Shown piece by piece: positions 12,961 through 49,192 of a stretch of DNA of 64,000 bases. Source of the DNA: Patescibacteria group bacterium. GTDB lineage: Bacteria > Patescibacteriota > Patescibacteriia > GWA2-46-9. Position 1 is the stretch's first letter; every line of letters begins with the position of its first letter. Made by a program: the position numbers and the translations under genes. The stretch lies in assembly GCA_041675205.1 (NCBI GenBank), contig JBAYUF010000001.1:84863-148862 (forward strand). Reading direction: 5' to 3'. The notes beneath the pieces are model-generated. The model was not told the DNA's origin and ran no database searches. It worked only from the letters and a program-made list of their open reading frames with translations.

Positions 12961-13305
12961 AGCTGCGTATGATAATTGGTATAGGTAATAGAATGAAGAA
13001 GTAGCAAGAATAGGCGTATACTATATCAGGGAATCACTCAGGGGTCAAAACGTTGCTTGCGTATTTTTAAGAGTCCTCGGGTGCCGCTTCCGGTTACTTT
13101 CATGCGCGGTGACTGTTTCCGCTGACGAGTTTTTTGTTTTTTCTCGACAGACCGAACAGTCGGATGGTCGAGATCGTAATCATGCAGTGGTCGCTCAAGC
13201 ATAACAGTAGACAGTGTGCCAGTTTGGTGGTACAGTTGGCAACTGTTTCAGGTTCCGTTTGTTGCTACGAATTCTTTTAACCAAGCCTTTCACTTGGTGC
13301 GTCCT

Positions 13306-13989: not shown

Positions 13990-13991
13990 GT

Positions 13992-21765: not shown

Positions 21766-21795
21766 TTGACGGGGAGGGTCATTCTCTGCTATAAT
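21766..21795 (+). promoter_or_regulatory. sigma70-type promoter for the giant-protein/T4SS-like operon
   Basis: TTGACG, 18-bp spacer, TATAAT. It lies ~60 nt upstream of the first gene, and a GGAAAG SD precedes the ATG at 21855. Confidence 0.55.
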
Positions 21796-21854: not shown

Positions 21855-22562
21855 ATGATGGATTTTTTTCAAAAACTTGGCGTTCGATTTGATCAGCACA
21901 GCCAATCAATCCTGTTGGCGTTTCTGTTTTTTGTTGGTGGCGTTGGTCTCATTCTTGGTGGAATGAATTTGCGAAGCTCTTTACGAAATCCATTTATTGA
22001 AAAGGGTGTTGGCGCTCTTCAAACAGCCGAGGGAACAACAGCGCTGGTTGACACTGATGGTGATGGCTTAACCGACGAAGAGGAATTGGCGCAGTATGGC
22101 ACGAGTCCGTATTTGGCGGATTCTGACTCAGATGGCGCAAACGATGCCGATGAACTTGCTGCGAGCAGTGACCCCAATTGTCCAACTGGAAAAAATTGTC
22201 AGGCCGTGGCTGAACTTGATGTGCCGAGTAGCGCCGGTGATACCTTCTCGTCGCTCCTACAGGTTTCTGCAAATGGCACAACAGAACCAAGTGCGGCGCA
22301 GATTCGAGCGGCGTTGCTCACTTCCGGTGTGGCTGAATCAGAATTGGCAAAACTAACTGATGAAGAAATAGTTGCTGGGTATCGTAGCGCTGTGCAGGCT
22401 CAAACTTCAACGACAGCGAGTGATGGCGTTCAGAATCTTTCGACAGAAGAAATTCGAAAGGTACTTAAAGAGCAAGGAGTGACTGACGAGCAGCTCTCCA
22501 AAATTTCTGACACCGAACTGCTGAAACTTTACGAAGAGACGCTGCGTCAGACGCAGCCGTAG
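21855..22562 (+). CDS. membrane-anchored hypothetical protein with a DTDGDGLTDEEE calcium-binding-type motif and two tandem ~30-aa repeats (…EEIxxxLxxxGVxExxLxKxxDxE…)
   Basis: N-terminal TM segment. 235 aa. 9-nt gap to the giant gene. Confidence 0.6.
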   Translation: MMDFFQKLGVRFDQHSQSILLAFLFFVGGVGLILGGMNLRSSLRNPFIEKGVGALQTAEGTTALVDTDGDGLTDEEELAQYGTSPYLADSDSDGANDADELAASSDPNCPTGKNCQAVAELDVPSSAGDTFSSLLQVSANGTTEPSAAQIRAALLTSGVAESELAKLTDEEIVAGYRSAVQAQTSTTASDGVQNLSTEEIRKVLKEQGVTDEQLSKISDTELLKLYEETLRQTQP

Positions 22563-22570
22563 TTTTTTAT

Positions 22571-25500
22571 ATGCAGTTAGGATTACATAATCGGCAAAAG
22601 CGTCATCGGTTCGTGGGTGCACTACTCGCGCTTGTGTTTTTATTTACTGGCACGTTTGGAGCGCCGCAACGGGCGAATGCGCAAGCCATCAAGGCCTTTA
22701 CGACATCGGTTAGTGACATTTGGACTTCACTCCAAACTATTGGAGACAAAGCGGTGGCGGCGTACGAGAAAGCAGCAGATATAAAAACAGAAGCACTGAA
22801 AGAGTCGGCCGCGGTGAGCTTTCGTCAGGGCGTTAGTTATTTTTTAAATAAGATTGCCAGTGACACAGCCGTGTGGATTGCCAGCGGTGGGAAAGGGCAA
22901 AAGCCACTCTTTATTACGCAGGGGTGGGGTTCCTATTTGACCGATGCCGCAGAAGGGGCGGCCGGTGCTTTTGTTGATGGACTCATCACCGGCCCAGTGG
23001 CAAGTTGCCAATGTCGTGATCAATACGGCTCAATCGAACCAAATACGGCGACCGAGGAGGTGCAGTGTTTGACTACAACTACCATAAACGGAATTCCTGT
23101 TGAGTGTCAGTGGACCCCTGGTACGAAATCAGATTCAACAAATACGTTGGGACTTATTGCCCAAGGGTTATGTGCACCAGATGCTGATATTCAACTTTCC
23201 ATTAATTTAGGGTTAGCGAATTCCGGTCGACAGCGTGCCCCGAAGTGCACCTTTAGTCGCATTAAGCATAACTGGGAGCAATTAATTCGAGAGAAAAACT
23301 TTCTACCAACGCTTTCTCAGAGTTTTAACCCCAGTCAAAGCGACCTCGGCATTGCGTTGACACTGCAGTCAAATCTGTTGCTTGAAAAAAGAGAAGCCAA
23401 AGAGCGGGCAGAAAAAGAGCGACTTGAAGCTGGTGGGTATAAGCCAGTAACGGGCGGCGTAGGGGATGTTTTGAAGTTACCTGGTCAGACGGTGCGAGGT
23501 ATTTTTGACGGTGTTTTTAAAACGACAACTGAGCAGAATCAATCGCCGACCGGCACCATTATTGGTGATGCTGTTGATATTTTTGTGAATACATTGGCCA
23601 CTAACTTCTTGAAAAATCTTATCAGCGGTGGATTTAGTGGTAATACTTCTTCGAGCGGTGGGAATAAACCTAATTTGAGTAATTTTGAAGCCGAATCCGC
23701 CACTGAAGGGGTTCTTGGCGCGCAAGCTCGACTGGCGCAAGAGCTTCGTCCACGGTTTACTGTTCCTGGTCGGTATGACGTGTTGTCACAGCTCGTGAGT
23801 TGTCAGAATACAAAAAATCCAGGGCCGAATGATTGCGTCATTACTGATAGCTTTCGGAACGCCGTGTCGCAGCGCCTTACCGTTCGTGAAGCTGTTGATC
23901 GCGGACTCATTAACGCAGACGCACCGTTTGGATTTGTTGCGTGGGATCCACAATCAGTTGAGCCAAGTTACAATGAAGGGATACCGTATCGTTCAATTCT
24001 TATTCTACGAAAATATAGGATTGTACCAGTCGGGTGGGAGTTAGCCGCCCGCTACATTGAACGTTTTCAAGATGATTCCCCAAAACGAGTTACGCTTGGT
24101 GAGTTACTGAACCTTTACGATCAACCAGAGCTGCCGGGTGGAGCATTGAACCCATACTATCATTTAGTCGATCCGTCATGGGTGCTCGTGCCACCGGATT
24201 CGTTTTGCAAGTTGCAAGGTTCTGGTCCACAAATTCTAAGCCAGGATGTTTTGCCCGGTGTGGACTCTGACAATGATGGCAAGTTCACTTCAGTTGGTGA
24301 TACCGCCCCCAAAGTCGCGATTTCTCGAAATGCAAATTACTGTGCCGATGAACAGACCTGCATCGCTCGAGATAATGATGGGAACTGTAAGTTCTACGGG
24401 TATTGTACCGAAGAAAAACAAGTTTGGGATTTTGGTGGGAAGAGCTGTTCACCTCAGTTTTCAAGTTGTACCACATTAAAAAATGAACTCAGCGGTACTA
24501 CCGTCTCCTATCTCCTCAATACGGTTGATTTTTCTCCATGTGACGCTAGTTCCGTTGGTTGTGCCATGTATAGTGCAACACCATTGTCTGATACAGTCTG
24601 GAGCACGAGTGATGTCATATTCCTGAATAACCAAGCAGAAACGTGCAGTAAAGATGACGCGGGGTGCCGAAAGTTTATTCGTACCGGCGCGCAATTTCTA
24701 AATGGGTTAAGCACAAATTTAGTTCGTAATCCTGGATTTGAAGTGGTTGCAGAGGACAACAGCTTTACCGGATGGACCGCAAATGGCGGCGCCGTGGAGT
24801 CGGTCACCGAAGCGCAATTTAGTGGGAGCCGGTCACTCAAGGCAACAACACTTAGCGTGCTATCGCAGTCAGTTCTCACTGGGCCACTAGCCAATCAAAC
24901 CGTTACGCTTTCATTTGAAGCTCGTGGAGCCATTGCTGGTCAAGTTCTTGGTTATACCCTTGCGGCAGGTGATGCCATACAGACAGCCGCTACCCTTACC
25001 ACCGAGTGGCAGCACTATGAGGTGCGGAAAACCTATGGTGCCACAGCTGCTTCATCACTTACGCTGGAGCTGTCAGTCCTTACTGGTGTCGCAATTGACA
25101 ATGTAAAGATTCAGCTTGGTGCCGCGTCGGCGTATTCAGCATATGGCGAAGGGGCAAGTAATAGTTCGGTGTATTTAAAACGAGCACCGGCGTACCTCTC
25201 TGCGAAGACTGACATCGACTTTCTTGCAAGTAACGAACAGAGTTGTCGGCCCTCGGCGGTGGCTAGTGATGCCGTAGATGAGAATAGTGAACGGGCGGAA
25301 TGTCAGCCGTATGCCCGCTACTGCACACCGCAGGAAGCTGGTTGTCTGCGCTATACGCCCACCAATCGCACAACACCGGTAACGGCCGTGAGTGGTTCTT
25401 CGTGCCCGGGCGAGTGTGTTGGCTTTGACACCTACACCCAAGGGAAAACTTTCTTTGAGTCGGTAAAATTTGTTGACCTTATTCCTACCTCGGGAGAGCG

Positions 25501-28500
25501 TTGTTCAGCCGCCGCGGTTGGTTGTGATGAATTCACAAACTTAGACACAACAACGCAAGGCGGCGAATCGCGCGAGTTCTACCAACAGGTTCGATTCTGT
25601 GAATTACCAGGTAGAGCAGATGCCGGGACATTCTACACATGGGAAGGGTCAGACGACACCGGCTTCCAGTTGCGAGTCTTTACTTTAAAGAAAACGGATG
25701 TTGGAGTAGAAAATTATTTTGTAAACGATGTCGGTGACACCGGTGTTGACAGCGCCGCGCCGTGTACGAAAATTGATTGGTCCGACGATGGTCAGTCTGC
25801 GACCTGTGCTGATACAACGCAAACCGCTGACCCGGCGTGGCGAACCTGCAACGAGAACACCTATCAAGGGAATCCCGATTGTCGACAGTTTTATAATGAA
25901 GCTGGTTTAGTGTCGTACCGTTTGCTATCCCACACCATTAGCGTGACGGACCAATGTCGGCCATTACGGAAAACGACGTCCAACACCATAGATTGTGAGG
26001 CATCAAATGGTTGGTGGAACAGTGCGTTGCAGGCCTGCTTGTATCAAGCCGTGCCAGGTGAAGGTCGGCAGTGTAATGCGGCGGTTGCTGGCTGCCGTGA
26101 GTATCGAGGCGGCACAGCCGCTCGATATCGAACTATTTTAAATGACACCTTTGAGCGTGGCACTGGAAACTGGGAGGGTGGACGATTAAGCCCGGTGGCC
26201 AGTACAGTCGGCGGACATTCGTATGAAATACTTGATCGCACTACCCGTAAACCAGTAACGGTTTCTGATGGTAGCAGTACGGCAGTTGACGGCTCGGTTA
26301 CAAACGGGGCAACGTACGTCGTGAGTTTTTCAGCACGGGCACAAAATGGCGATACTGATTCAGCTTTCGTACTTTCTTTTGAAAGAAAGAGCGGGGAGGT
26401 CGACCTATTAATTACAGATTCTTTAACGAATGAGTGGCAAACATATCAGAGTGACCCAGTAACTATCTCTGTAGACCCTACTGACCCCCTGGTTGGTTTA
26501 CTTATAACGCATGCTGGTGCAGGTCGCGCTTATGTCGATAACGTTACATTACGCACCACGAGTGATACGCATTACCTCATTAAAAATTCTTGGCAAACAC
26601 CATCCGCTTGCTTTGCTCCGGACACTGGGGAACCCTATTTGGGTTGCCAATCATATAGAGTGAGTGACGGTTCGGAACGTTCTGTGTGGGAGTTTGGCGG
26701 AGCCTGTCATGATAAGGTCGTTGGCTGTGAAGCCGTCATCGACACGCAAAACACAACGATTGGTGAAGTAGCCCCCTTTGCTAAGACATTTGCTGAGGAC
26801 AGTGAAACAATCATTACCGTACCTGAAGACTCGCTCGACTATATCGTTAATGACCCAGCCAAAACATGTAAAGTAAGCGCCCAAGGGTGTGAGCTTTTGG
26901 GGAAAGCAAACCTTTCTACTGCGTCAGCATCTCCAACCCTTCCGTTGGCCTTAGCGGTTTTGCGATGCCACACACAAAGAAATTCTTGTGTTTCAGATTT
27001 GCGCATTAGATTAGTTGCCGCCGGGTATGATAAAGATTTGCTAACAACACCAGGTATTGATGAAAATTTAGTAGCGAAGTTTGACAGTAACGTTTTAGGC
27101 GCTAAGGATGCGTTACTCATCTTGCGCAATTCTGTTGGTCTTGGAGATCCAAACATTAGCACCTGGACGACAGGAGCTGTCTTAAATAATCCTGACACCT
27201 ACGACAGTATTCTTTGTCGAATTGATGAGCTTCAGTGTTCTGCCTTTACTGATAGCGGTGGCTCGACGTATTACTTTAAAGATCCAGGTAGCCAAATTTG
27301 TGAATACCGAACTGACAAACCAATCGCTGGTTGGTACGTTAAGGGAACCATAAGTCTGACCCCAGATTGTAACGCTAGTCAGAATGATCCTGACGTTAAC
27401 ATCCACATTGCCGGTGGCACTGCGCCTAGCCCGCAGTCTGGGTTTACTGGTGTGTGTCCGGCGCAGCAAAATAGTTGTCGCGAATTTATTGATCCTCGGT
27501 CTGATGGCAGCGCTAACATTCTCTATAACGGTGAGTTCATATTGAAAACTGATGACAAACCAGTTCGGTGGAAGGAAACGGTTCCTGGGGATATAGCTGA
27601 TGTAGAGGGTGGTGTTAAAATTATGGAGGGTGGTCTTGAGCAAGAGCGGGTGGCACTTCGAACGCGCACCCTGTACGTATTGTCAGCCGAGGTGAAAGCG
27701 GTAAATGCCGCCGCTACTAAAACAGCGGGCTATGTCGGTATAGATTGTGGCGTGGGTGAAGTGTTTACTGCTAGTGATATTCCCTATGCCTTTGCCGTGC
27801 CACGTTCTACGGAAACCTTCGAACGATTCAGTACACAGTTTTATGTTAGTGGTGACGACCAGGGTGATTGCACCGTTAGTGTTGGTTTGGCGGCAAGTTT
27901 GCTTCCTCGAGACAAAAGCGAATTTACCACAAATAGCGGTGTGATTGTTCGTGCCATTAGCTTACGCGAAGCAGGACTACACTATGAATTAGCCAATGGT
28001 GTATCGCAAAAAGATTGTGCTGGTACGGTAAACAATGCGAACTGCGTGCTGGTTGGTGTGCAGCAAGACTTCACCCAAAAAGGTATCACCGCCAATTTTG
28101 ATGCCGATACAAGCCCCACAAGTACGAAAGTGCCAAACAGCGATAGTCGGGGAGAGTATGTATGTATTACCGCCGAGAGCCGCTGTGTTGGAACTGATAG
28201 GGCGTGTACTAATGATAGCGACTGTCAGCTGCAAAAAGATGCAACGTTCATTGCTAGCGTGCAGCCAGGTCGCGAGTGTGGTGCATGGCTATCTTGCCGG
28301 ACGGCCAGAACAGTTGTCAAAGGTGGGGTTACTAATAACGTTTGTCTGGAGGTTGAAGGGTGCCAAGAGCTCGACGACAAGGGGAATTGTATTCGACGAG
28401 CCCCAGACGTTATTGATACTGACCTGACCTACACGGCAGCCACCGTCGACCTCTTGCGTAATCGGTCCGGGTATTCAAAGGTCGGCTTTGACTGGACAAC

Positions 28501-31036
28501 GGATCCGTTGAAGAAAAAAGTGATTCAGGGGTATTTAGCGCCAGGGATGATGAGCCAAATTGGTCAGTTAGCCGGGAATTTTAATGGTACCTTTGAGAGC
28601 GCTAGCATTGTTGGTGAACCGTTCGGGTGGGTTGGATGGGGGCAAGGCCAGAATATGCTGGTGATTGGTGACCCACTGGCTGCTCAGGATGCAGGCATTA
28701 GTTATCCTGCAGAAGGGAAGAATGTACTTGAGGTAAACGCCAATCATGCTGATCCAGACGCCAATCATGCTGATCCAGACGACGATTACGTGCTTAATGA
28801 TGCTTCAACAAATCTTTCTCGCTTTATTCCCGTTACACCAAACACCGAGTACGTGCTATCTGCTTTGGTGAACACAAGGCAATTCACTGGTGAAAGTAGC
28901 GAAGTTCGTGTCTTTGAATACAACGGCATTGCTGAAACTATTCCCAATGCCACGGGTGATAAGTTTTCTGCTCTACTTAACCTTGGTCGTGGGACTGAGT
29001 GGACTATTCGCACTGATAAATTTACAACAGCTAGCACTACGAGTTACGTGCGACTGCAACTTTCATGGGTGCCGCAGGCCGGTAAACCAGAGACTTCCGG
29101 GTTCTGGTATATTGATGATATTAAATTACAACCAGCACTTGAATATCAGAAAAATGAGTTTTATAACCCTAACGACCTGGCGGGTAGTAGGGTTGCTCCT
29201 GACTTTCCACCACTTGCCTATGAGCGAGGTTTAGAAACGCTTGATTATAAGTACGCTTCACAGTCATGCCGGCTTTACCCGCAGGCTGATGCCCTGTCGT
29301 GCTCCTACTTTGACGACAATGGATTAAAGCAGCGCGGTAAACTGGGTTATTGTTTGGAGTGGGACACGCAAAATAAGAATTACTGCATCCAGTGGTGGCC
29401 GGTGGACAATGTTATTGGTGAAGACAGTGAAGAAGATCGAGCCGGTTACGACGGCCCCGTTCCTTTGTACCAGTGCATTGAAACCTACGACGGCTTCTTA
29501 CCAGCCACCAGCAATAATTTTTACGGTGTCTATTACAATGGCAAACATTCCTCAATTAAAATAGAGGATCCGTGGGAAAGCTATCAGATAGAAGCAGATA
29601 GTACCGTTGTCATCGACCTCTTCAAGAGTGGCTTTGATGGTTTGCCAAATGTGTCATCCGGTGGCATTACTGATAAGCCTGGTACCTGCAACAGAGATGG
29701 CGGTGACATCACTGGGTGTGAAATCGCGATTCGTATATTGAAGGCTAGTGATGACGAGGATGAATGTGCCGAGGTGTATGTTGGTAACAAAATGGGACAG
29801 GTCGTTAATGGTGACGACAGTGAAGACGGGGATGTAAAAGTGAGAGCGGCAGAAGTGACAAGAGTTACAACCCGCAAGTCAGCCGCCTTTCTTGATTTAG
29901 CTGATCTTGGCCCTGAAAATAGTAAACGCAACTATCGGTATCTTAAAATTTCAACTATTGATACTGGTTGCGATCAATCAGAGATTCGGCTTTGGGTCCG
30001 TCCTAACTTTGCCTGCACGGCAGTGCTTCGAACAGTGGACGAGGATGGTACTAATAAGGCCTACGCCAGTCGGGTAACGTCTGGAGCTACCTACCCATTT
30101 AGTTTTCCAGGCGGTCTAACCTACGGGTATTCAACTGATAGCCCACCATTTGGTTCGGCGGTGCCGCCAGCCCCGGCGGGAGATCCCACGCAATGGGATA
30201 CCAATACTGAAGCTGGAAAACAGGCACTGTTCGCTATGCCGAAGCAGGTGAATACTAGCAACAAAGAGCTCGCCCGAGCTGGTGGCCCGTATAGCTGTCT
30301 TTCGATTGGTTCAGTGCAACCTTTCGTTGCCGAAGGTGAGCCATGGACCTGGGGAGGGACGGTTAGCATTAGGCAGCCAGCATGTGCTTCTTATCTTGGT
30401 GTACCTGGAGTAGTCGGGGGTCGTAATGAGGCGGTTAAACTGCTACAAAATTTATTTGTTAAGAGCTACGGGATGTGGGAGTGGAAGAATGAAGCATACA
30501 CTCCAGCAACTGGTGCTATTTTAACAGTACCGGATGAGCGGTGTAAGAATAATGTTCGACCCGAACCGGATGATCCTGATGCTGCCGATGCTTGCTTTGT
30601 GTATCCAGGTATTCCAAAGGCTGTGTTAGACACAACAACCGTTAAGGATGTCGGTGTTGTTGGTATTAGATTCACCGCCGTAGCTGACTCCGACCAGGAG
30701 CCTATTGTGCAGTACATAGTAGACTGGAGGGACGGCTCTAAGACTACGCAAACAGGCTTACGACTTTCCAGCCGTTCAGAAATTGCGCAGGCGATTTCGC
30801 TCACTCACAATTACTCTTTTGATCAAATCAGTCAGTGCAAAGAAAATGGTGATTGTGGGGATGTTGGCGGTACCGGTACCGATAGCAATCCGTTCACTGT
30901 CAAGCCACAGGTGCAAATTCTAGATAACTGGGGATTCTGTAGCGGTAGTACCCTTGGTTCGGGAGACAGCCTGAGCACGGGTGGCTGTACAGGCTCATGG
31001 AAAGAGACGGAAAACGAGGTAGAGATTACCAGATAG
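22571..31036 (+). CDS. giant secreted Cys-rich protein (2,821 aa) with several CBM4/9- or galactose-binding-like beta-sandwich segments
   Basis: Signal peptide with a …RANA|QA cleavage site. Uninterrupted 8.5-kb ORF. Recurring NPGFE…GW-type segments. High Cys content. Confidence 0.85.
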   Translation: MQLGLHNRQKRHRFVGALLALVFLFTGTFGAPQRANAQAIKAFTTSVSDIWTSLQTIGDKAVAAYEKAADIKTEALKESAAVSFRQGVSYFLNKIASDTAVWIASGGKGQKPLFITQGWGSYLTDAAEGAAGAFVDGLITGPVASCQCRDQYGSIEPNTATEEVQCLTTTTINGIPVECQWTPGTKSDSTNTLGLIAQGLCAPDADIQLSINLGLANSGRQRAPKCTFSRIKHNWEQLIREKNFLPTLSQSFNPSQSDLGIALTLQSNLLLEKREAKERAEKERLEAGGYKPVTGGVGDVLKLPGQTVRGIFDGVFKTTTEQNQSPTGTIIGDAVDIFVNTLATNFLKNLISGGFSGNTSSSGGNKPNLSNFEAESATEGVLGAQARLAQELRPRFTVPGRYDVLSQLVSCQNTKNPGPNDCVITDSFRNAVSQRLTVREAVDRGLINADAPFGFVAWDPQSVEPSYNEGIPYRSILILRKYRIVPVGWELAARYIERFQDDSPKRVTLGELLNLYDQPELPGGALNPYYHLVDPSWVLVPPDSFCKLQGSGPQILSQDVLPGVDSDNDGKFTSVGDTAPKVAISRNANYCADEQTCIARDNDGNCKFYGYCTEEKQVWDFGGKSCSPQFSSCTTLKNELSGTTVSYLLNTVDFSPCDASSVGCAMYSATPLSDTVWSTSDVIFLNNQAETCSKDDAGCRKFIRTGAQFLNGLSTNLVRNPGFEVVAEDNSFTGWTANGGAVESVTEAQFSGSRSLKATTLSVLSQSVLTGPLANQTVTLSFEARGAIAGQVLGYTLAAGDAIQTAATLTTEWQHYEVRKTYGATAASSLTLELSVLTGVAIDNVKIQLGAASAYSAYGEGASNSSVYLKRAPAYLSAKTDIDFLASNEQSCRPSAVASDAVDENSERAECQPYARYCTPQEAGCLRYTPTNRTTPVTAVSGSSCPGECVGFDTYTQGKTFFESVKFVDLIPTSGERCSAAAVGCDEFTNLDTTTQGGESREFYQQVRFCELPGRADAGTFYTWEGSDDTGFQLRVFTLKKTDVGVENYFVNDVGDTGVDSAAPCTKIDWSDDGQSATCADTTQTADPAWRTCNENTYQGNPDCRQFYNEAGLVSYRLLSHTISVTDQCRPLRKTTSNTIDCEASNGWWNSALQACLYQAVPGEGRQCNAAVAGCREYRGGTAARYRTILNDTFERGTGNWEGGRLSPVASTVGGHSYEILDRTTRKPVTVSDGSSTAVDGSVTNGATYVVSFSARAQNGDTDSAFVLSFERKSGEVDLLITDSLTNEWQTYQSDPVTISVDPTDPLVGLLITHAGAGRAYVDNVTLRTTSDTHYLIKNSWQTPSACFAPDTGEPYLGCQSYRVSDGSERSVWEFGGACHDKVVGCEAVIDTQNTTIGEVAPFAKTFAEDSETIITVPEDSLDYIVNDPAKTCKVSAQGCELLGKANLSTASASPTLPLALAVLRCHTQRNSCVSDLRIRLVAAGYDKDLLTTPGIDENLVAKFDSNVLGAKDALLILRNSVGLGDPNISTWTTGAVLNNPDTYDSILCRIDELQCSAFTDSGGSTYYFKDPGSQICEYRTDKPIAGWYVKGTISLTPDCNASQNDPDVNIHIAGGTAPSPQSGFTGVCPAQQNSCREFIDPRSDGSANILYNGEFILKTDDKPVRWKETVPGDIADVEGGVKIMEGGLEQERVALRTRTLYVLSAEVKAVNAAATKTAGYVGIDCGVGEVFTASDIPYAFAVPRSTETFERFSTQFYVSGDDQGDCTVSVGLAASLLPRDKSEFTTNSGVIVRAISLREAGLHYELANGVSQKDCAGTVNNANCVLVGVQQDFTQKGITANFDADTSPTSTKVPNSDSRGEYVCITAESRCVGTDRACTNDSDCQLQKDATFIASVQPGRECGAWLSCRTARTVVKGGVTNNVCLEVEGCQELDDKGNCIRRAPDVIDTDLTYTAATVDLLRNRSGYSKVGFDWTTDPLKKKVIQGYLAPGMMSQIGQLAGNFNGTFESASIVGEPFGWVGWGQGQNMLVIGDPLAAQDAGISYPAEGKNVLEVNANHADPDANHADPDDDYVLNDASTNLSRFIPVTPNTEYVLSALVNTRQFTGESSEVRVFEYNGIAETIPNATGDKFSALLNLGRGTEWTIRTDKFTTASTTSYVRLQLSWVPQAGKPETSGFWYIDDIKLQPALEYQKNEFYNPNDLAGSRVAPDFPPLAYERGLETLDYKYASQSCRLYPQADALSCSYFDDNGLKQRGKLGYCLEWDTQNKNYCIQWWPVDNVIGEDSEEDRAGYDGPVPLYQCIETYDGFLPATSNNFYGVYYNGKHSSIKIEDPWESYQIEADSTVVIDLFKSGFDGLPNVSSGGITDKPGTCNRDGGDITGCEIAIRILKASDDEDECAEVYVGNKMGQVVNGDDSEDGDVKVRAAEVTRVTTRKSAAFLDLADLGPENSKRNYRYLKISTIDTGCDQSEIRLWVRPNFACTAVLRTVDEDGTNKAYASRVTSGATYPFSFPGGLTYGYSTDSPPFGSAVPPAPAGDPTQWDTNTEAGKQALFAMPKQVNTSNKELARAGGPYSCLSIGSVQPFVAEGEPWTWGGTVSIRQPACASYLGVPGVVGGRNEAVKLLQNLFVKSYGMWEWKNEAYTPATGAILTVPDERCKNNVRPEPDDPDAADACFVYPGIPKAVLDTTTVKDVGVVGIRFTAVADSDQEPIVQYIVDWRDGSKTTQTGLRLSSRSEIAQAISLTHNYSFDQISQCKENGDCGDVGGTGTDSNPFTVKPQVQILDNWGFCSGSTLGSGDSLSTGGCTGSWKETENEVEITR
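28739..28780 (+). repeat. perfect 21-bp tandem duplication inside the giant gene (ANHADPD x2, in frame)
   Basis: gccaatcatgctgatccagac is repeated twice head-to-tail. Confidence 0.9.
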
Positions 31037-31039
31037 GGT

Positions 31040-31369
31040 ATGGCAAATACATTTAGCAGCGTTGACGAACAATTGCTTGCCCAAAATAGTGATGTGGGTG
31101 AACAAGAGCGCGCACAGCAACTGCGTGGGCTGCAGTCTATTGCCCGTCGGCAACTCGCCTCGCGGGCGGTGAAAAAGGGTGCTGGGGCAGCAGCCCGTTC
31201 GGGCGCCATGGGGGCCGCAAAAGCCGCTCGAACAATTTGGATTATTATGGCTGCTCTTGCCACCCCGGAAGTCTTGACGGTCGTTATCGTTTTGATGCTT
31301 CTTGTACTCTTCATGAATTACGCCTTATCGATACCAGTTGTCGGCGACATACTGAAGTGGTTTCTATGA
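31040..31369 (+). CDS. small membrane protein (109 aa, C-terminal TM hairpin)
   Basis: 4-nt gap after the giant gene. Its stop overlaps the next start (ATGA). Confidence 0.55.
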   Translation: MANTFSSVDEQLLAQNSDVGEQERAQQLRGLQSIARRQLASRAVKKGAGAAARSGAMGAAKAARTIWIIMAALATPEVLTVVIVLMLLVLFMNYALSIPVVGDILKWFL

Positions 31370-34300
31370 GTTTTCGTGATCTCTTAAAGAAGAAATATAT
31401 ACGTCGTCAGGTATTGATAGCTGCAATGCTCGGTTTCATTGTCATGCTTCCTATCGGTGTTAAGGCAGCAGGGATTGGTGACGGGATTCAGGGGACCATC
31501 TTCGGAGTACTTTCATGGGGCATTTATGGCATTGTGCTCTTTTTATCTCGTTTTACCGTTTGGCTTGTCGGTTTTTTAGTAAGCATCGGACAGTATAACG
31601 GATTTATTAATTCACCAGTTGTGTTGCAGGGTTGGGTGGTATTGCGAGATATATCGAACATGTTCTTTGTACTCATCCTACTTTTGATAGCGTTTGGCAC
31701 CATCCTTCATATTGAGCAATATCAAATGAAACGATTGCTGCCCAAAGTGCTCCTCATGGCAATCTTGGTTAACTTTAGTAAAGCCATCGCCGGGCTGCTG
31801 ATTGATTTCTCACAAGTTATAATGCTCACTTTTGTGGCGGCGTATCAGGCTGCCGGAGCGGGGAATTTAGCGCAGGCAATGCATCTAGATAAAATTTTAG
31901 CAATAAAAAATACAGAGGATGGTGGTTTGTTTGATGAAGCTGCTGCCGAGACGCTCGTGGCATTACTACTTGCACTTGTATACATAGTCGTTGCCTCGGT
32001 TGTTGTTGGGGCTTTTGCGGTGATACTTGTGGTACGAATGGTGATGTTGTGGTTGCTCATCATTTTTTCACCACTCGCCTACGTCCTTTCCGTTGTGCCT
32101 ATTGGGCAAAAGTATGCCAGTCAGTGGTGGGAAAATTTTGCAAAATATGTAATTTTAGGTCCGGTCATGGCATTTTTCTTGTGGCTATCACTCGCCACAC
32201 TGCCGACCCTTATTGCAAGTGACGCCGACCTTGCTGTTCGTACACAATCAAGCGGTAGCGCACAATCACTCGCCGAAGAGAAAGAGCAAGTCAAAACCAT
32301 CGGTATTACAGAGATTGGCTCTGGGTCTGTGATGTCCGGATTTCTCATCAGCATCGTTATGCTCTTTGCGTCGCTCATGTTTGCAATCCAGACTGGTGGC
32401 GTGGTTGGGAAGATTGCTGGTGGTGCCTATGGTCAATTACTGAGTAAAGGCACCACAGTGGCAAAGATACCATTAGGCCTTGCCAGTTGGGGAGAAAGAA
32501 AGGTTGCTCGCATGACGGGTGGTGTAACCGCATTTCTGAACCCAGTCCGGGTTGCTCGGGCTTGGCGTGGTTACGCTGCACACAAAGCGGGTCGTGAGGA
32601 GGCAGAAATTGGCTATCGAGCAGGGAGCGCCGCTAGTGCTCATTTTGCCGCTGGTCGAGGGGTGCGCGGCGCACTGCGATTAATGGCCGGAGCGCATGAA
32701 GATGCTTTTGAAACGTATATGGGAACGCATGGAGTGATGCGTTTTGTCAAAACCATGAGCGGCAACAGTAAAACAGGTACGAATGATTTTCTTGATGCGA
32801 AACGATTACAGCAAGAGGCAGATATTGAGCGGGAAACTTTCAATGCCGCAACTGATAAGGGGCGAGTAGATAAGATTCGGCAAATTGGAAAAGAGCACTA
32901 TGCCGACAAATTTCGTACCAAGATTATGAAGGAGGAAGTTGATCGCGTCAGTGTTATTCGTGGTTTTGGGAAAAGCGACAATAAACTTGACCCCTATAAT
33001 TCACGTAAAGAAATTAACGATGAAGGTAAGCAAGAAGTAGTTACCCTTAAAGACGCAGCAGAAAAAGCAGGCGTTGATTTAACAGACACTAGCAGTAGTA
33101 CAACACAGGCGTTTCTGCGTGAATGGGATGAAGATAATGCCCGTCGTGATTTAGGTAAGCGGCCAGGTGGTTTGGAGGGTCGGGTGAGCGCACTTGTTGC
33201 AAAAAAGGGCGATGCTGATATTTTGGACCAAGGCAAACGTACGCTCGGTGAGAAATTAAAAGCGCAAGAATCCTATGTTACGGAGCTTATGGCGGGTGGG
33301 CTTTCGAGCACAGAAAAAGCAACACGTGAGCAACAAGAAAAGACAGTAGATGAAGAATTACGACGTATTACTGCGGCGCTTAAAACGGCAAGTGGTGTTG
33401 AGAAACAATCACTCAACGCACTAAAGACAGAATTACAGAAAGAAAAAAAGAGTGGTCGATTTGATAAAGACACTGCAGGTAACTACTTACTGACCAAGAA
33501 AGAACGGGATGAAAATAAAGAGAAAATTAAAGACTTCAGTGATCCTCGCCGGGCTGATTACAGCAGTGCGCTTAAAGAGCAGAAAAAGCTTTACGGGATG
33601 ACGTTAGACCCAGCCGACGCCGCAGAAAAGATGGAAATTGACCGTGCGAAAGCGAAGGCAGATGAAATAATGGCTCGTAGAAAGGAGCCAGATGTGGCAC
33701 CTCGCCCGTATTTTGCCGAACAAGCATTCAGGCATTTAGAGTCGGAAGAATCGTCGAAATTACCGCGCGAAGCCATGGAGTACGACGAAATTGATGCATT
33801 ACTGAAAGATGCATTACATGAGGGGAACATCGTGAAAACATCAGCGCTCATGAAGAAAGCGGCGAAAGATGCTAACGACAACGAAATTTGGAATAGTTTC
33901 GGTTATGGTAGTGGGCCCGAAGGTGCTGAGCAATTTAGAAAGGCAAAACTTGTCCCATTAATGGGGGACCAGGCCTCAATGTCACTCATGAGTGAGCTGA
34001 ACTATATTAACGAAGATATTGGTCACACTAACACCACTCGTTCGTATGGGGTGAGGAATGGTTCATACTATAAGAAATCTGCAGCTGAGCAATCGGCATC
34101 CGCGGCGTGGGAAGTAACGAAACGGCAATCACGAAACTTTTTGCAAAATACAAACCGACTTGGTTTTGGGTATGAAGATACTGAAGGCAAGTTTCACCTT
34201 GATTTAACTGGCAAGCTTATCATTTCATCAATGCAAAATGACATGAATTACCGGTTGAATCGAAAAGAGTTTAACAACAACCTATTGTTGAAATTACTAG

Positions 34301-34455
34301 AAGACGTAGATTCGCTCGACGACATGGTACGACGGGGTCTATTGCGGAGAGATTTGGTTGATAATATGAAGTCGCTAGGCCGAGAACATGTGCGGCGCGG
34401 TGTACCGAATAGCCCGGGTGGTTTTGAGTCAATGGCACGGCAGCTTTCCGTTTAG
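31366..34455 (+). CDS. VirB6/TrbL-like polytopic membrane protein with a ~600-aa coiled-coil-rich hydrophilic C-terminal extension (TcpH/PrgH-like architecture)
   Basis: ≥7 TM segments in the first ~400 aa, then a K/E-rich region. Start chosen at the ATGA overlap rather than the track start 31237. Confidence 0.6.
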   Translation: MSFRDLLKKKYIRRQVLIAAMLGFIVMLPIGVKAAGIGDGIQGTIFGVLSWGIYGIVLFLSRFTVWLVGFLVSIGQYNGFINSPVVLQGWVVLRDISNMFFVLILLLIAFGTILHIEQYQMKRLLPKVLLMAILVNFSKAIAGLLIDFSQVIMLTFVAAYQAAGAGNLAQAMHLDKILAIKNTEDGGLFDEAAAETLVALLLALVYIVVASVVVGAFAVILVVRMVMLWLLIIFSPLAYVLSVVPIGQKYASQWWENFAKYVILGPVMAFFLWLSLATLPTLIASDADLAVRTQSSGSAQSLAEEKEQVKTIGITEIGSGSVMSGFLISIVMLFASLMFAIQTGGVVGKIAGGAYGQLLSKGTTVAKIPLGLASWGERKVARMTGGVTAFLNPVRVARAWRGYAAHKAGREEAEIGYRAGSAASAHFAAGRGVRGALRLMAGAHEDAFETYMGTHGVMRFVKTMSGNSKTGTNDFLDAKRLQQEADIERETFNAATDKGRVDKIRQIGKEHYADKFRTKIMKEEVDRVSVIRGFGKSDNKLDPYNSRKEINDEGKQEVVTLKDAAEKAGVDLTDTSSSTTQAFLREWDEDNARRDLGKRPGGLEGRVSALVAKKGDADILDQGKRTLGEKLKAQESYVTELMAGGLSSTEKATREQQEKTVDEELRRITAALKTASGVEKQSLNALKTELQKEKKSGRFDKDTAGNYLLTKKERDENKEKIKDFSDPRRADYSSALKEQKKLYGMTLDPADAAEKMEIDRAKAKADEIMARRKEPDVAPRPYFAEQAFRHLESEESSKLPREAMEYDEIDALLKDALHEGNIVKTSALMKKAAKDANDNEIWNSFGYGSGPEGAEQFRKAKLVPLMGDQASMSLMSELNYINEDIGHTNTTRSYGVRNGSYYKKSAAEQSASAAWEVTKRQSRNFLQNTNRLGFGYEDTEGKFHLDLTGKLIISSMQNDMNYRLNRKEFNNNLLLKLLEDVDSLDDMVRRGLLRRDLVDNMKSLGREHVRRGVPNSPGGFESMARQLSV

Positions 34456-34467
34456 GTAAATTTCACT

Positions 34468-35892
34468 ATGCCAATAACAAAAAAAAATGAAACAATCGAG
34501 GTGGTGGCGAAAGCGCTACCCAATCCAGCATATTTAGAATCGGTTACAAAATATTTCCACGAGCAAGTTTTCGTGGAAGATAATGCTCGAGAGGCCGATA
34601 GGTTTTATCGTGTTTTGGTCGAACTGTTACCGAAAGACTCTTTTAAAGAGCGATACCCAGAGCTCTACACTGGCTATGAAAAGCTGCTGTATGAATGTCA
34701 ATTCTATGCCTTTGCTTGGTTGACTGAAGATGAGGCTCTCAACCTAGTGCGTAATCATTTTTCCCTTGCGTTCCAGCTCTCCGCTATTTTAGAGCTCCGC
34801 CGGAAAATAAGAGTTAAACTTATCGCTGATTATCAGATAGAGGCACGTGATGCTTTCAAGGAAAAGTTACGGCGAGCAGCAGAACAAAATACTGAAGTCA
34901 TTACTGGTAAGCAGCTGCAGCAAGACGGAGCTGCTACAACAGCCCCTCCAACGGTTGGCAATTGGATCAGAAATTATGTGGGTGCTGTTGGTACAGCAGG
35001 GCCGGTGGACGCGCTCCGACAAGCCGAATATTTTACAAAAAATAAGAATTTTGACGCACTGACACAGACGGAGAAAGAGGGCATTCGGTGGTTATTGGAA
35101 ATATACGAGTCACTTCGGTGGTCGTCTTTGACACCGGAAGGTTTAGAGGAAGTACTCTCTACAAATATTGATGGGAAAGAGGTGCTCATTAGTGGAGGGG
35201 AGGTGGAGGAAATTTCTCCTGAAATCCGTAAGCTGGTGCAGAAATTTCAAGAAGTAGGGCTCATTTCTGAGAGTGAAAAACCTTCGCCTGCCGTGCTTGA
35301 AGCTGCTGTGGCGGCATCTACTGTTATTGCAGAAAAACCCGTCGCGATGCCGCCGCTTGTTCTCCCTGTTGCCCCTGCACTTGTGACTGGTGAATTGCCA
35401 CGCATTTCTGCCTTGCCTGCTCCGCCAGTGGTTTTACCATTACCTCCAGTTGCACCAATTATAATTCCAAAGCCACCTGCAGCTGAACCACGGGTTGAAA
35501 AAATTATTAATCCCACTCCGCAAAAGGTGGTGGTCACTAAAACGAGCGAGTCGCCATCAATGGTTGACGTGAAACGGTTTGGCGGTGCTGTTGGGCCAAT
35601 TGATGAGTTACGACTTTCGACACTGAATGATTTTCGTAAACTTGACCCAGATCCAGCTGAGGCGGCGAAGCGAATACTGCAAAAGATTCACCTCCTTGAA
35701 GATGAATCATATGATCGGAAGGCCGACGCCATTCGTGCCTGGCGACAAAGCCCCGTTCATCGATTGTATTTAGACGTCATCGACGAGAGTGTTCGCACAG
35801 GTATGCCAGTAACCGAACTCTTTGAGAAATACAACGTGCGCCAAACGGAATGGGAAGCACTTGGCACGTTATCTCGTGATTTGAGTAGCTAA
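34468..35892 (+). CDS. hydrophilic hypothetical protein (474 aa) with a Pro/Ala/Val-rich linker
   Basis: Clean ORF with no TM segment. PVAMPPLVLPVAPALV…PPVVLPLPPVAPIIIPKPPAAEP. Confidence 0.55.
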   Translation: MPITKKNETIEVVAKALPNPAYLESVTKYFHEQVFVEDNAREADRFYRVLVELLPKDSFKERYPELYTGYEKLLYECQFYAFAWLTEDEALNLVRNHFSLAFQLSAILELRRKIRVKLIADYQIEARDAFKEKLRRAAEQNTEVITGKQLQQDGAATTAPPTVGNWIRNYVGAVGTAGPVDALRQAEYFTKNKNFDALTQTEKEGIRWLLEIYESLRWSSLTPEGLEEVLSTNIDGKEVLISGGEVEEISPEIRKLVQKFQEVGLISESEKPSPAVLEAAVAASTVIAEKPVAMPPLVLPVAPALVTGELPRISALPAPPVVLPLPPVAPIIIPKPPAAEPRVEKIINPTPQKVVVTKTSESPSMVDVKRFGGAVGPIDELRLSTLNDFRKLDPDPAEAAKRILQKIHLLEDESYDRKADAIRAWRQSPVHRLYLDVIDESVRTGMPVTELFEKYNVRQTEWEALGTLSRDLSS

Positions 35893-35894
35893 GT

Positions 35895-36326
35895 ATGCAG
35901 CAGTTTATTATTCCCCAGTTCATTGATGAAGAACCCCATATTCTTGGGCCGATAACTGTTCGACAGTTTTTGCTGCTTCTCATTGCGGGCTTCTTTATTT
36001 TCCTCAGCTATCGACTCGCGGATACTGCCTTATTTATTGTGCTGACCATAGTACTACTCATCATAAGCATAACTTTGGCATTCGTTCGGGTGAACGGTCG
36101 CCCTTTTCATTTCTTTTTGCTAAATTTAGTGCAGACATTGCAACGTCCTCGGTTACGCATTTGGCGCAAAGAAGTGAGCAGAGAAGAAATTCAGGACGAA
36201 TCAAAAATGCCAGTCCTCGTCCCAACTGTCATAGTGGCGAAAGCGCCCATTAGTCGTTCCCGTTTGGCGGAACTCTCACTCATTGTTGATACGGGTGGGG
36301 CATATGCTGGTACTGAAGGTAATTAG
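35895..36326 (+). CDS. VirB3/TcpE/PrgI-like small membrane protein (143 aa, two TM helices)
   Basis: Size, two-helix topology and its position immediately upstream of VirB4. Confidence 0.45.
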   Translation: MQQFIIPQFIDEEPHILGPITVRQFLLLLIAGFFIFLSYRLADTALFIVLTIVLLIISITLAFVRVNGRPFHFFLLNLVQTLQRPRLRIWRKEVSREEIQDESKMPVLVPTVIVAKAPISRSRLAELSLIVDTGGAYAGTEGN

Positions 36327-36343
36327 CGTGTAATTGAAAATAA

Positions 36344-37045
36344 GTGGCTAAAAGAAAGGCAAACAAGGCAACACTGAGTACCCAGCGATTTCTAGAAATC
36401 GCTGAAGTGCATGATGATACCGTTGTCCTTAAGGATGGTAGCCTGCGTGCGGTACTACTTGTTTCGTCAATCAATTTTGCCTTGAAGTCAGACGATGAAC
36501 AGGAAGCGATTATTCAGGGATATATGAGCTTCTTGAACTCTATCGATTTTTCGCTTCAAGTGGTTATGCAATCTCGCCAGCTGAATATCGCTGGCTACCT
36601 TGATAAGTTAACAGCCATTGAGCGTGAGCAGACTAACGAGCTCTTAAAGATGCAGACGGGTGAGTACCGTCAATTTATTAGAGAATTGGTTGAATTGGGG
36701 CAGATTATGAATAAGCGGTTCTATGTGGTGGTGCCATATCAACCTGGGAGCGACAGTCAAAAGCCATTTTTTGCACGACTCCGTGAGGTGTTGCGACCAG
36801 CTTCAATCTTGCGTCTCAGTGAGGATCGGTATCTTCGGCATCGACATGAATTAATGCAGCGGGTTGATCATGTGACGAGCGGGCTTAATTCTTTAAGCCT
36901 CGAAGTTCGCATGCTTGATACACAGACGTTAGTTGAACTGTATTATGGAACGTATAATCCTGAGAGTGCGCGGTTAGCGCCACTTGTTGATCTCCATGAT
37001 TTGCAGGTCGATGATACGGCGTTCCGTTCTACACCATCACTATGA
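36344..37045 (+). CDS. N-terminal domain of a Gram-positive-type VirB4 ATPase, encoded as a separate ORF
   Basis: The [38 protein letters not shown] … RFYVVVPYQP pattern matches what I recall of TcpF/PrgJ N-termini (uncertain). Stop overlaps the next ATG (ATGA). Confidence 0.5.
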   Translation: MAKRKANKATLSTQRFLEIAEVHDDTVVLKDGSLRAVLLVSSINFALKSDDEQEAIIQGYMSFLNSIDFSLQVVMQSRQLNIAGYLDKLTAIEREQTNELLKMQTGEYRQFIRELVELGQIMNKRFYVVVPYQPGSDSQKPFFARLREVLRPASILRLSEDRYLRHRHELMQRVDHVTSGLNSLSLEVRMLDTQTLVELYYGTYNPESARLAPLVDLHDLQVDDTAFRSTPSL

Positions 37046-38898
37046 TTACCTTGAATCGAAATAAAAAAAAGATTGCTGCCGCTGCTGAATCCGTTTCGGT
37101 CGAATCTTCAGCGCAGAGCCGAGAGGCGTTGGAGATCGCAAGAGTTTACCAGAAAGGCGTTATTCGATTGCGTGATATTGTCGCGCCGACTGCGTTTGAG
37201 GTTGAAGCATCGTATATTAAGTTGAATGACCAGTACGTGCGCACACTCTTCATAACAGAGTATCCACGGTACATCTCGGTTGGTTGGTTCGCACCACTCA
37301 TCAATGTTAGTACAACCATTGATCTGGCACTCTATATTTACCCAGTGAGTTCGGGAATTGTTTTAAAGCAACTCCGAAACAAGGTGGGGTCACTGGAAGC
37401 AGAAATTATCGCGGAGCACGAAAAGGGTGCACCGCGCGATCCTATTAAAGAAACAGCATTAAAGGATATTGAACGACTCAGAGATGACCTGACACAGGGG
37501 GTAGAGAAGTTCTTTCAATTTGGGCTTTATGTGACGTTGTACGCTGATACGCTTGAGCATCTTGATAGGACAACAGGGGATATCGTGCAGCTGCTTGGCA
37601 CGAAGCTTGTCTATGCTCGAAAGGTGCTCTATCAGGCAGAGCAAGGCTTTATTTCAACCGTCCCACTTGGCGTTGATGAACTGCAGATTACCTTCAACAT
37701 GAACACGTCACCTATTTCTTCTGCGTTTCCCTTTGTTTCTTCAGAACTGACTAGTGACGACGGCATACTGTACGGTATCAATAGGCACAATAACAGCCTC
37801 ATTCTCTTTGATCGGTTCTCGCTGCAGAATGCGAATACGGTCGTGTTCGCCACCTCTGGAGCTGGAAAATCGTACACTATTAAGCTTGAGGTACTGCGGT
37901 CCCTTATGCTTGGGGTGGACGTTATTGTGATTGACCCTGAAAAGGAATATCAACACCTTTCTGAAGCGGTCGGTGGCACCTACTTAAATATTTCATTGGC
38001 CAGCGAAAGCAAGGTAAACCCTTTTGATTTACCGCGCGGTATTGGTGACGATATACAGACAGGGGACGTCATTCGTAGTGCCGTCATTACGCTGAAGGGA
38101 TTACTTCGTATCATGCTCGGTACGTTAACAAGCGAAGAGGATTCGCTGCTTGATCGCGCCCTCTTGGAAACATATGCCAAAAAAGACATTACACCCGAAT
38201 CTGACTTAACCCGAGTAGAGCCACCAATTTTGGCCGACCTGGAAGACGTTTTGAACGGTATGCAAGGCACGCAAGATATGGTGGCCCGGTTGCAAAAATA
38301 TACCAAGGGGACGTTTGCCGGACTTTTGAATAGCACAACAAACGTCGTCACTGATAATCAACTAATTGTTTTTTCAATCCGAGATTTGGAAGATGAATTG
38401 CGACCAATTGCAATTTACACAATTATAAACCACATTTGGAATTTGGTTCGCAGCGAGCGAAAGAAGCGGATTCTTGTAATTGATGAAGCCTGGTGGATGA
38501 TGCAGCACGAAGACAGCGCCAAGTTTATATTTGCGTTAGTGAAACGGGCTCGTAAATACTATCTTGGGGTAACGACTATCACGCAAGACGTCAGCGACTT
38601 TTTAAGTTCACCGTATGGATTAGCGGTAGTGAATAACTCAGCGATGCAACTCTTGTTGAAACAGTCACCAGCCGCCATTGATTTGGTACAGAAGACATTT
38701 CTTTTGACTGAAGGCGAGAAGTACCTGCTACTGGAGGGCAGTGTTGGTGAAGGCATTTTCTTTGCTGGGCCGAAGCATGCGGCTATTAAAGTTGTGGCTT
38801 CGTATACGGAAGATCGTTTGATTACAACTGACCCACGGCAACTCTTAGAAATGGAGGCGGCGGCAAAGCGCGACAACGCTACACCGCCAGTAGCATAA
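37042..38898 (+). CDS. VirB4/TrbE/CagE-family T4SS ATPase (C-terminal 618 aa including ATPase core)
   Basis: YVRTLFITEYPRYISVGWFAPLIN block. Walker A FATSGAGKSYT. Walker B/DEAW block ILVIDEAWWMM. Confidence 0.8.
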   Translation: MITLNRNKKKIAAAAESVSVESSAQSREALEIARVYQKGVIRLRDIVAPTAFEVEASYIKLNDQYVRTLFITEYPRYISVGWFAPLINVSTTIDLALYIYPVSSGIVLKQLRNKVGSLEAEIIAEHEKGAPRDPIKETALKDIERLRDDLTQGVEKFFQFGLYVTLYADTLEHLDRTTGDIVQLLGTKLVYARKVLYQAEQGFISTVPLGVDELQITFNMNTSPISSAFPFVSSELTSDDGILYGINRHNNSLILFDRFSLQNANTVVFATSGAGKSYTIKLEVLRSLMLGVDVIVIDPEKEYQHLSEAVGGTYLNISLASESKVNPFDLPRGIGDDIQTGDVIRSAVITLKGLLRIMLGTLTSEEDSLLDRALLETYAKKDITPESDLTRVEPPILADLEDVLNGMQGTQDMVARLQKYTKGTFAGLLNSTTNVVTDNQLIVFSIRDLEDELRPIAIYTIINHIWNLVRSERKKRILVIDEAWWMMQHEDSAKFIFALVKRARKYYLGVTTITQDVSDFLSSPYGLAVVNNSAMQLLLKQSPAAIDLVQKTFLLTEGEKYLLLEGSVGEGIFFAGPKHAAIKVVASYTEDRLITTDPRQLLEMEAAAKRDNATPPVA

Positions 38899-43789: not shown

Positions 43790-43879
43790 CGGAAGGGGAG
43801 GGATTCGAACCCTCGGTACGGAAAAAAACCGTACAACGGTTTAGCAAACCGTCGCCTTAGGCCACTCAGCCACCCTTCC
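43790..43879 (-). tRNA. tRNA-Ser (anticodon GCT), long variable arm, CCA not encoded
   Basis: Reverse complement has GGAAGGG/CCCTTCC acceptor, anticodon loop TTGCTAA, a long extra arm and T-loop TTCGAAT. Confidence 0.85.
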
Positions 43880-49191: not shown

Positions 49192-49192
49192 A

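Follow-up and report, generated by a model that had tools for sequence, protein, structure and literature searches.

A giant cysteine-rich protein with carbohydrate-binding-type modules encoded beside type IV secretion genes in Patescibacteria

A giant gene within a block of secretion genes

Within a 64,000-nucleotide stretch of a Patescibacteria contig (JBAYUF010000001.1; the whole stretch is called the window below), a single gene of 8.5 kb encodes a cysteine-rich protein of 2,821 amino acids (aa), here called the giant, and lies just upstream of genes for a type IV secretion system (T4SS). This gene (22571..31036, + strand) is a single frame in which 2,821 codons run unbroken to a stop. A homologue search returned at least 176 matches of 2,300-3,900 aa, and these are intact open reading frames (ORFs) that BLAST coverage and an alignment of 118 sequences, made with MAFFT, show to be collinear with the giant over nearly its whole length. 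The same alignment is the basis of the counts of cysteine columns, signal peptides and LPXTG motifs given below. A pseudogene or a misassembly is ruled out, because the homologues are everywhere intact and collinear.

The giant starts with a signal peptide that has a basic n-region (NRQKRHR), a 17-aa h-region and a cleavage site at A35-N36-A37|Q38. In a hydropathy scan of the whole protein this N-terminal stretch was the sole hydrophobic one, with no second membrane segment and none at the C-terminus. An N-terminal hydrophobic segment is kept in 108 of the 118 homologues, and an AxA|Q-type site is present in most of the N-termini inspected. LPXTG occurs in the last 60 residues of none of the 118, and the giant is not a member of the LPXTG-type (PrgB-type) adhesins. 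Cysteine makes up 2.9% of its residues (82 in all), compared to a mean of 0.88% for 32 of the window's other ORFs. Among the cysteine columns of the alignment, 61 of 82 are retained in at least 70% of the homologues, most of them in nearly 100%.

Judged from sequence comparisons, the giant belongs to a large, conserved, unnamed and unstudied family that appears to be found only in Patescibacteria. Every homologue with a named source, among the at least 176, comes from Patescibacteria, from a candidate phylum within them, or from an unclassified 'bacterium', and the lineage names include Falkow-, Uhr- and Buchananbacteria. The window protein itself is present in NCBI as a protein of a metagenome-assembled genome (MAG); its homologues are annotated only as hypothetical or as 'carbohydrate binding domain-containing', and a literature search found no description of the family. 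When aa 38-715 were used as query against 1.84 billion cluster representatives, 1,292 clusters at 50% identity were matched (E up to 1e-3); the best 150 of the 1,292 were all giants or fragments of giants, with the query domain always N-terminal.

The giant gene is the second of eleven + strand genes packed into 21855..40168 with gaps of at most 17 nt or overlaps, downstream of the housekeeping genes UvrA, LeuRS, Sua5 and KsgA. The first gene of the block, which ends 8 nt before the giant, encodes a 235-aa protein with an N-terminal transmembrane anchor (aa 15-37), two TSP3-type calcium-binding repeats and two C-terminal helical repeats. The genes that follow the giant include those for VirB6-like, PrgI/VirB3-like, TrsD/TraC-like and VirB4 proteins (Table 1), and RecG and RadA genes also lie near the block. 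Promoters and terminators were called as consensus matches only. On that basis the best sigma-70-like match of the region, in the gap between KsgA and the TSP3 gene, is a candidate operon start, and promoter-like sites overall were no more numerous than in shuffled sequence. The top terminator-like site, a GC-rich hairpin at the end of the TSP3 gene, is possibly an attenuator that reduces read-through into the giant gene, or a chance occurrence.

An earlier note on this DNA, made by inspection of the sequence, had proposed a secreted protein of 2,821 aa with an ANA|QA cleavage site, no obvious C-terminal anchor and dense cysteines throughout, and had named internal frameshifts among the findings that would speak against it. 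The single frame, the A37|Q38 site of a conserved AxA|Q type, the lack of a C-terminal membrane segment or LPXTG, and the conserved cysteines agree with that description at each point, and no frameshift was found. Its placing of the giant at the head of a T4SS-like operon stands in part: the giant does belong to a block of T4SS genes, but as the second gene, with the TSP3 gene and the best promoter-like site upstream of it.

Architecture of the encoded protein

The giant opens with a conserved N-terminal domain, after which five conserved cysteine-rich modules alternate with four more variable β-sandwiches of the type found in families 4, 9, 16 and 22 of the carbohydrate-binding modules (CBMs); a hypervariable insert and a β-rich C-terminal region complete it (Table 1). 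Per-segment identities in the family follow this division. The core of the N-terminal domain stands at 44% and the cysteine-rich modules at 33-47% (module 4 is lowest at 33%, and the other scaffold segments are at 38-47%), while the four sandwich inserts, of 140-200 aa each, are at 26-31%. Comparison to the nearest homologue alone gives the same picture, with 53-68% identity in the scaffold and 38-51% in the sandwiches. Two stretches, aa 1446-1540 and aa 2306-2480, are hypervariable. Where the window giant has the second of these, 23 of the 118 homologues (for example P0048, P0094, P0062, P0070 and P0041) have one to three strongly hydrophobic, Gly-rich stretches, which may be membrane-active segments; the window giant has none.

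The cysteines are not scattered at random. The spacing CX6C occurs 14 times in the giant; in 2,000 shuffles it averaged 2.3 occurrences and never exceeded 9. The cysteine-rich modules have only a short CX6C hairpin motif in common and otherwise show no detectable mutual homology: profile alignments between them (hhalign) gave probabilities of at best 78% (22 columns) and 43% (73 columns), and 19% or less for the rest. Oxidative folding of such a protein has candidate catalysts nearby: two genes for membrane-anchored DsbA-like oxidoreductases lie in the window, and more are found in relatives. Each window copy is paired with a gene for a VirB2-like pilin with a cysteine-rich C-terminal tail. 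Between the two paralogues the pilin domains have 53% identity, and the tails are unrelated. Neighbouring DsbA and T4SS_pilin genes similar to these pairs are also present in two related loci (L004 and L005). The giant thus combines the export signal, the conserved cysteines and the available oxidoreductase expected of an extracytoplasmic disulfide-bonded protein, the pairing of its cysteines being predicted.

Searched as a whole against Pfam, the giant matched one family only, CBM_4_9 (PF02018; E 9.7e-12, 45.9 bits, in two stretches). Scanned alone, these segments scored 27.5 bits (aa 716-835) and 36.3 bits (aa 1188-1300), both above the family's gathering score of 25.9 bits. In NCBIfam the sole match was to Mep72, below threshold and across the CBM region. 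The fourth sandwich (aa ~2001-2195) is homologous to the first by profile-profile comparison, and a family profile searched against PDB found CBM22 and CBM4 chains over sandwich 2, CBM16 chains (2zey, 2zew) over sandwich 4, and no others. Sandwich 3 (aa ~1650-1810, the 'NGEFILKTDD' segment) was not significant by sequence (hhalign 31%).

Structures were predicted with AlphaFold2 from alignments of 29-30 sequences. The model of aa 1640-2821 is almost all-β, with a mean predicted local distance difference test score (pLDDT) of 67 and values of 70-89 in inserts 3 and 4. Foldseek matched this model to a CBM22 tandem (E 1.6e-8, the alignment extending across two sandwiches) and to CBM16, CBM4-2, CBM22 and a porphyran-binding CBM, with target-normalised template modelling (TM) scores of 0.56-0.76; the matches also included Reelin repeats and the CBM-like C-terminal domains of Vip3A and Cry. 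There are therefore four CBM-type sandwiches, two of them above the Pfam threshold, one identified by profile and fold, and one, sandwich 3, provisionally assigned from its predicted fold only. The earlier note had been right that CBM-like segments are present, but counted at least three: its third and fourth snippets both lie inside one module (aa ~2001-2195), and the best CBM_4_9 segment (aa 1188-1300) was missed.

The Vip3A and Cry matches, together with the adjoining secretion genes, bear on the idea that the giant is a substrate of the T4SS, an effector toxin delivered into the host cell. We consider this very improbable. A conserved Sec signal peptide points to the Sec route and not to the T4SS channel, the size of the protein and its approximately 40 possible disulfides are hard to fit with passage through that channel, and scans of the window proteins for domains revealed neither a toxin domain nor a cognate immunity gene.

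The N-terminal 550 residues are the best-conserved part of the giant. They contain, within the small α/β core (aa ~405-540), the motif ILRKxRIxPVGWExAA, and the homologue alignment shows five invariant residues there (R474, R480, W489, E490 and W537). These residues would fit an alternative in which the giant is a secreted enzyme that degrades glycan or cell wall, with the N-terminal domain acting as a new type of CBM-targeted hydrolase that opens the host's wall or the cell's own for the T4SS, as a stand-in for VirB1. CBM4, CBM9 and CBM22 modules are typically attached to glycoside hydrolases, the PDB matches are modules of xylanase, laminarinase and endoglucanase, the 21855..40168 block is without a VirB1-like gene, and VirB1 is rarely encoded near virB4 in CPR (candidate phyla radiation) bacteria (PMC12102498). 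The N-terminal domain matched no known family or fold; the best Foldseek match to PDB had an E of 1.9, and the missing fold match is weak evidence because the model is itself weak (mean pLDDT 58, confident only over aa ~405-540). On balance we regard the enzyme explanation as improbable, if less so than a delivered toxin.

At the other end of the protein, the conserved end domain had suggested a PKD domain by eye (WxDG...HxY). A Pfam scan of 18 family members gave no PKD match and no other Pfam match to this domain, and no PDB sequence was matched at E up to 10.

Table 1. Coordinates of the giant gene, its segments and neighbouring features of the window
Feature	Position	Strand	Basis or remark
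Giant gene	22571..31036	+	encodes 2,821 aa
Signal peptide, aa 1-37, ANA|QA	22571..22681	+	sequence, hydropathy, homologue N-termini
N-terminal domain, aa 38-590	22682..24340	+	helical aa 38-400 and small α/β core aa ~405-540
Cys-rich module 1, aa 591-705	24341..24685	+	10 near-invariant Cys, three CX6C
β-sandwich 1, CBM_4_9	24716..25150	+	Pfam E 4.4e-6, above gathering score
Cys-rich module 2, aa 885-1180	25223..26110	+	alignment
β-sandwich 2, CBM_4_9, best match	26132..26545	+	Pfam E 8.8e-9; PDB profile matches CBM22, CBM4
Cys-rich module 3, aa 1340-1645	26588..27505	+	lineage-specific insert aa ~1446-1540
β-sandwich 3	27518..28000	+	predicted fold only; AlphaFold2 pLDDT 70-85, ~10 strands
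Cys-rich module 4, aa 1811-1945	28001..28405	+	alignment
β-sandwich 4, CBM4/16/22-like	28571..29155	+	hhalign 97.4% to sandwich 1; CBM16 profile matches; Foldseek TM 0.6-0.76 to CBM16 and CBM4
Cys-rich module 5, aa 2225-2305	29243..29485	+	CRLYP...GYCLxxD...CLxWxP; among best-conserved stretches
Hypervariable insert, aa 2306-2480	29486..30010	+	alignment
C-terminal β-rich region	30011..31033	+	conserved end domain VDWxDG...HxY...DNWG; AlphaFold2 pLDDT 75-90; no anchor signal
Sigma-70-like promoter match (candidate)	21766..21795	+	TTGACG-18-TATAAT with TG; best of region, in KsgA-TSP3 gap
TSP3-repeat protein, 235 aa	21855..22562	+	Pfam TSP3_bac E 1.8e-9
GC-rich 7-bp hairpin plus TTTTT	22541..22557	+	top terminator-like site; end of TSP3 gene, 14 nt before giant ATG
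109-aa protein, two transmembrane segments	31040..31369	+	small genes at same position in L001, L005
Extended VirB6-like polytopic membrane protein, ~1,029 aa	31366..34455	+	nine transmembrane segments
474-aa conserved protein	34468..35892	+	no Pfam family
PrgI/VirB3-like protein	35895..36326	+	Pfam PF12666, E 2.2e-8
TrsD/TraC-like protein, similar to VirB4 N-terminus	36344..37045	+	PF26593 on orthologues
VirB4 ATPase	37042..38898	+	P-loop_TraG E 4e-29
185-aa membrane-anchored protein and ComF-like phosphoribosyltransferase	38898..40168	+	end of tightly packed block
DsbA-like oxidoreductase and 332-aa VirB2-like pilin with 22-Cys tail	13216..14990	+	
353-aa VirB2-like pilin paralogue with Cys-rich tail (14 Cys) and second DsbA-like gene	48130..49891	-	

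Neighbourhood in relatives and the proposed role

Gene order around the giant was compared in two sets of relatives. The first comprised seven divergent giant homologues (25-32% identity) on long contigs. The second was anchored on the VirB6-like protein, for which a scan of GTDB species genomes gave at least 449 relatives; 80 of these loci were fetched, of which 50 had at least 8.8 kb of upstream sequence and 36 had both flanks. The organisms of this set include Candidatus Falkow-, Uhr-, Komeili-, Kerfeld-, Veblen- and Buchananbacteria, along with MAGs that have a generic label or a wrong one.

In all seven relatives of the first set, ksgA and then a TSP3-repeat gene stand immediately upstream of the giant (the TSP3 gene was detected in 17 further loci), and in six of them VirB6-like, PrgI, TraC-like and VirB4 genes lie downstream, at 25-32% identity. 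In the second set, 37 of the 50 loci have a giant directly upstream of the gene for the VirB6-like protein, a figure that, given the VirB6 anchor, is conditional on the presence of a T4SS and not on that of a giant. Wherever a locus spanned the whole giant it was one intact ORF of 2,300-3,100 aa with 2.9-4.6% cysteine. Of the 36 loci with both flanks, 21 had giant and VirB4, 10 had VirB4 only and 5 had the giant only. The giant therefore shares a cluster with VirB4 and core subunits, and the linkage is strong but not universal. The earlier note had asked whether homologues adjoin VirB4 in other genomes, and in most relatives the linkage to T4SS genes is indeed kept.

With these observations in view, we judge the chances to be about even that the giant is a Sec-exported, disulfide-stabilised extracellular protein that works with the Patescibacteria T4SS encoded just downstream and holds it at the host. 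After export by Sec and cleavage at A37|Q38, the protein would undergo oxidative folding. Its conserved N-terminal domain would then dock it to partners in the cell envelope, candidates being the membrane-anchored TSP3-repeat protein, the VirB6-like protein and the cysteine-rich VirB2-like pilins. The disulfide-locked modules would serve as a rigid stalk, the sandwich modules, which evolve fast, would bind glycans of the host surface, and the whole giant would hold the T4SS channel against the host, in a role like that of PrgB-type adhesins or VirB5 tip proteins, to which it is unrelated. A more specific version, which we put forward tentatively and would not yet call probable, is that the giant, with its TSP3 partner, forms a structural part of the T4SS that is specific to this lineage: a rigid, disulfide-locked stalk that would carry variable glycan-binding modules out to the host surface, determine host range and place the channel so that DNA or nutrients can be taken up or delivered.

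An adhesin or host-contact role, which the earlier note had also suggested in the form of an adhesin or pilus-tip factor, is our best inference, drawn from architecture and neighbourhood only. The CBM folds, the intact gene and the T4SS linkage speak for it; the giant resembles no known T4SS subunit or adhesin, having neither sequence nor fold similarity to any of them (VirB1-11, VirD4, PrgA/B/C, TraG etc.). That lack of similarity is one of several points that weigh against a part in the T4SS. One of the seven first-set relatives (L004) has the TSP3-giant pair followed by LexA and SecA, with no T4SS genes downstream (upstream of the pair are an SLT-pilin fusion and a DsbA gene), and in 13 of the 50 T4SS loci the giant is missing from the upstream side. 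A cleaved protein with no anchor would need some means of staying on the cell, CBM folds occur also in enzymes and toxins, confidence in the structure models is modest (mean pLDDT 58 and 67), and no expression or proteomic data for the giant were found.

The L004 arrangement and the 13 loci would fit an alternative in which the giant is a general surface fibre or adhesin that acts with the TSP3 membrane protein independently of the T4SS, its position being a neighbourhood inherited downstream of ksgA and not a functional link. The constant partner is indeed the TSP3 gene (7/7), with ksgA also always upstream, and large cysteine-rich exported proteins occur in another CPR lineage with no mention of a T4SS link (PMC4736985). 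Set against this, the order giant, VirB6-like, PrgI, TrsD, VirB4 is kept at 25-30% identity across several candidate phyla, coding gaps in the window are 3-17 nt or the genes overlap, and such conservation would be unusual without co-function. We consider a T4SS-independent fibre unlikely, though it carries more weight than an enzyme.

The loci without a giant are L016, L018, L021-L023, L026, L027, L036, L042, L050, L055, L056 and L085. At least six of them (e.g. L021-L023, L026, L036 and L055) share other upstream ORFs, of ~510, 470 and 556 aa, and L056 has two cysteine-rich ORFs in place of the giant (921 aa with 42 Cys, and 875 aa with 27 Cys).

Several other features of the window complete the picture of the locus. 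The VirB6-like protein has a ~650-aa highly charged tail, and its L001 orthologue gave a weak TrbL_3 match. A mechanical ORF list gave a 1,072-aa ORF at 31237..34455 that overlaps the 109-aa ORF; the true VirB6-like start is at 31366. A frameshift between 31040..31369 and 31237..34455 was ruled out, as these are two genes with an ATGA overlap, the second starting at the ATG at 31366. The 474-aa protein, which has a proline-rich stretch and one hydrophobic segment (aa ~315) and is encoded in nearly all related loci, is an uncharacterised conserved component of the T4SS cluster. Elsewhere, the window contains a complete 16S rRNA gene (1904..3386, + strand) with no adjacent 23S, and eight tRNA genes (at 5585, 6224, 6486, 7130, 10611, 41136, 43790 and 44616). 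The ORF at 43418..44026 is probably not a gene, because a tRNA (43790..43879, - strand) lies inside it. Genes of the type IV pilus, PilM (54977..56107, + strand) and prepilin peptidase A24 (59698..60471, + strand), are found 15-20 kb further downstream than the T4SS block, and a gene for a PMT_2 glycosyltransferase separates them.

Comparison with known systems

The T4SS of Patescibacteria is essential for growth on the host in the one culturable model, and the only systematic survey that we found reported no adhesin. The giant family could fill this gap. It is a concrete candidate for the host-recognition element, because it is conserved and very large, places variable lectin-type modules on an invariant scaffold, and is encoded directly before the T4SS genes. 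If it is a part of the T4SS, it would supply the 'missing adhesin' of an apparatus essential for epibiotic life; if it is a T4SS-independent fibre, it is still among the costliest conserved genes in these reduced genomes. Either way it offers parts that can be tested: four separable, putative binding modules and an N-terminal domain without a known fold.

The genes downstream of the giant belong to the MPF-FATA-like (mating-pair formation, FATA type) T4SS already described for Patescibacteria (PMC12102498; PMC10633639; PMC12857230). The CPR system resembles the monoderm MPF-FATA type and is without a relaxase, and no adhesin was detected in it (PMC12102498). Like the systems reported by Quinonero-Coronel et al. 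2025 and Wang et al. 2023, the window has PrgI/VirB3, TrsD, VirB4, a VirB6-like protein and VirB2-like pilins; its comF, recG and radA genes are the typical neighbours of the T4SS locus in class ABY1 Patescibacteria (PMC12102498). The giant and its TSP3 partner, on the other hand, are unmentioned in those papers.

The individual sandwiches are most like CBM families 4, 9, 16 and 22, which are galactose-binding-domain-like jelly-rolls: two of them pass Pfam and the others resemble these families by profile or fold. Unlike in those families, the modules have no attached catalytic domain and are placed between disulfide-rich modules, and their binding of ligands is putative. The alternation of jelly-roll sandwiches with a small disulfide-rich module recalls Reelin repeats, which were among the Foldseek matches; with a whole-alignment TM score of about 0.1 and no sequence relation, this is an architectural analogy only.

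A parallel in kind comes from Peregrinibacteria, whose extracellular cysteine-rich proteins (Anantharaman et al. 2016, PMC4736985) are likewise large and signal-peptide-bearing; a role in attachment was proposed for them, and variation is concentrated in them. They differ from the giant in belonging to another lineage, in forming a multi-gene cluster where the giant is one conserved single-copy gene, and in that no T4SS link is mentioned for them; the likeness is one of description.

Among proteins with a task that the giant may share, PrgB of pCF10 and other surface adhesins of monoderm conjugative T4SSs, and the VirB5 tip proteins of diderm systems, have in common with it export by Sec, a place in a T4SS cluster and a plausible role in contact with the target. 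The giant is several times larger than those adhesins. It also differs from them in having no sequence or fold similarity, no LPXTG, and CBM-type sandwiches set on cysteine-rich modules; the CPR survey likewise found no PrgB-like adhesin (PMC12102498). A functional precedent is offered by a cultured Saccharibacterium, for whose epibiotic growth the T4SS and glycan-binding surface proteins are both essential (PMC10633639). In our estimate the chance is about even that the giant is a secretion-system-associated surface adhesin of an architecture not described before.

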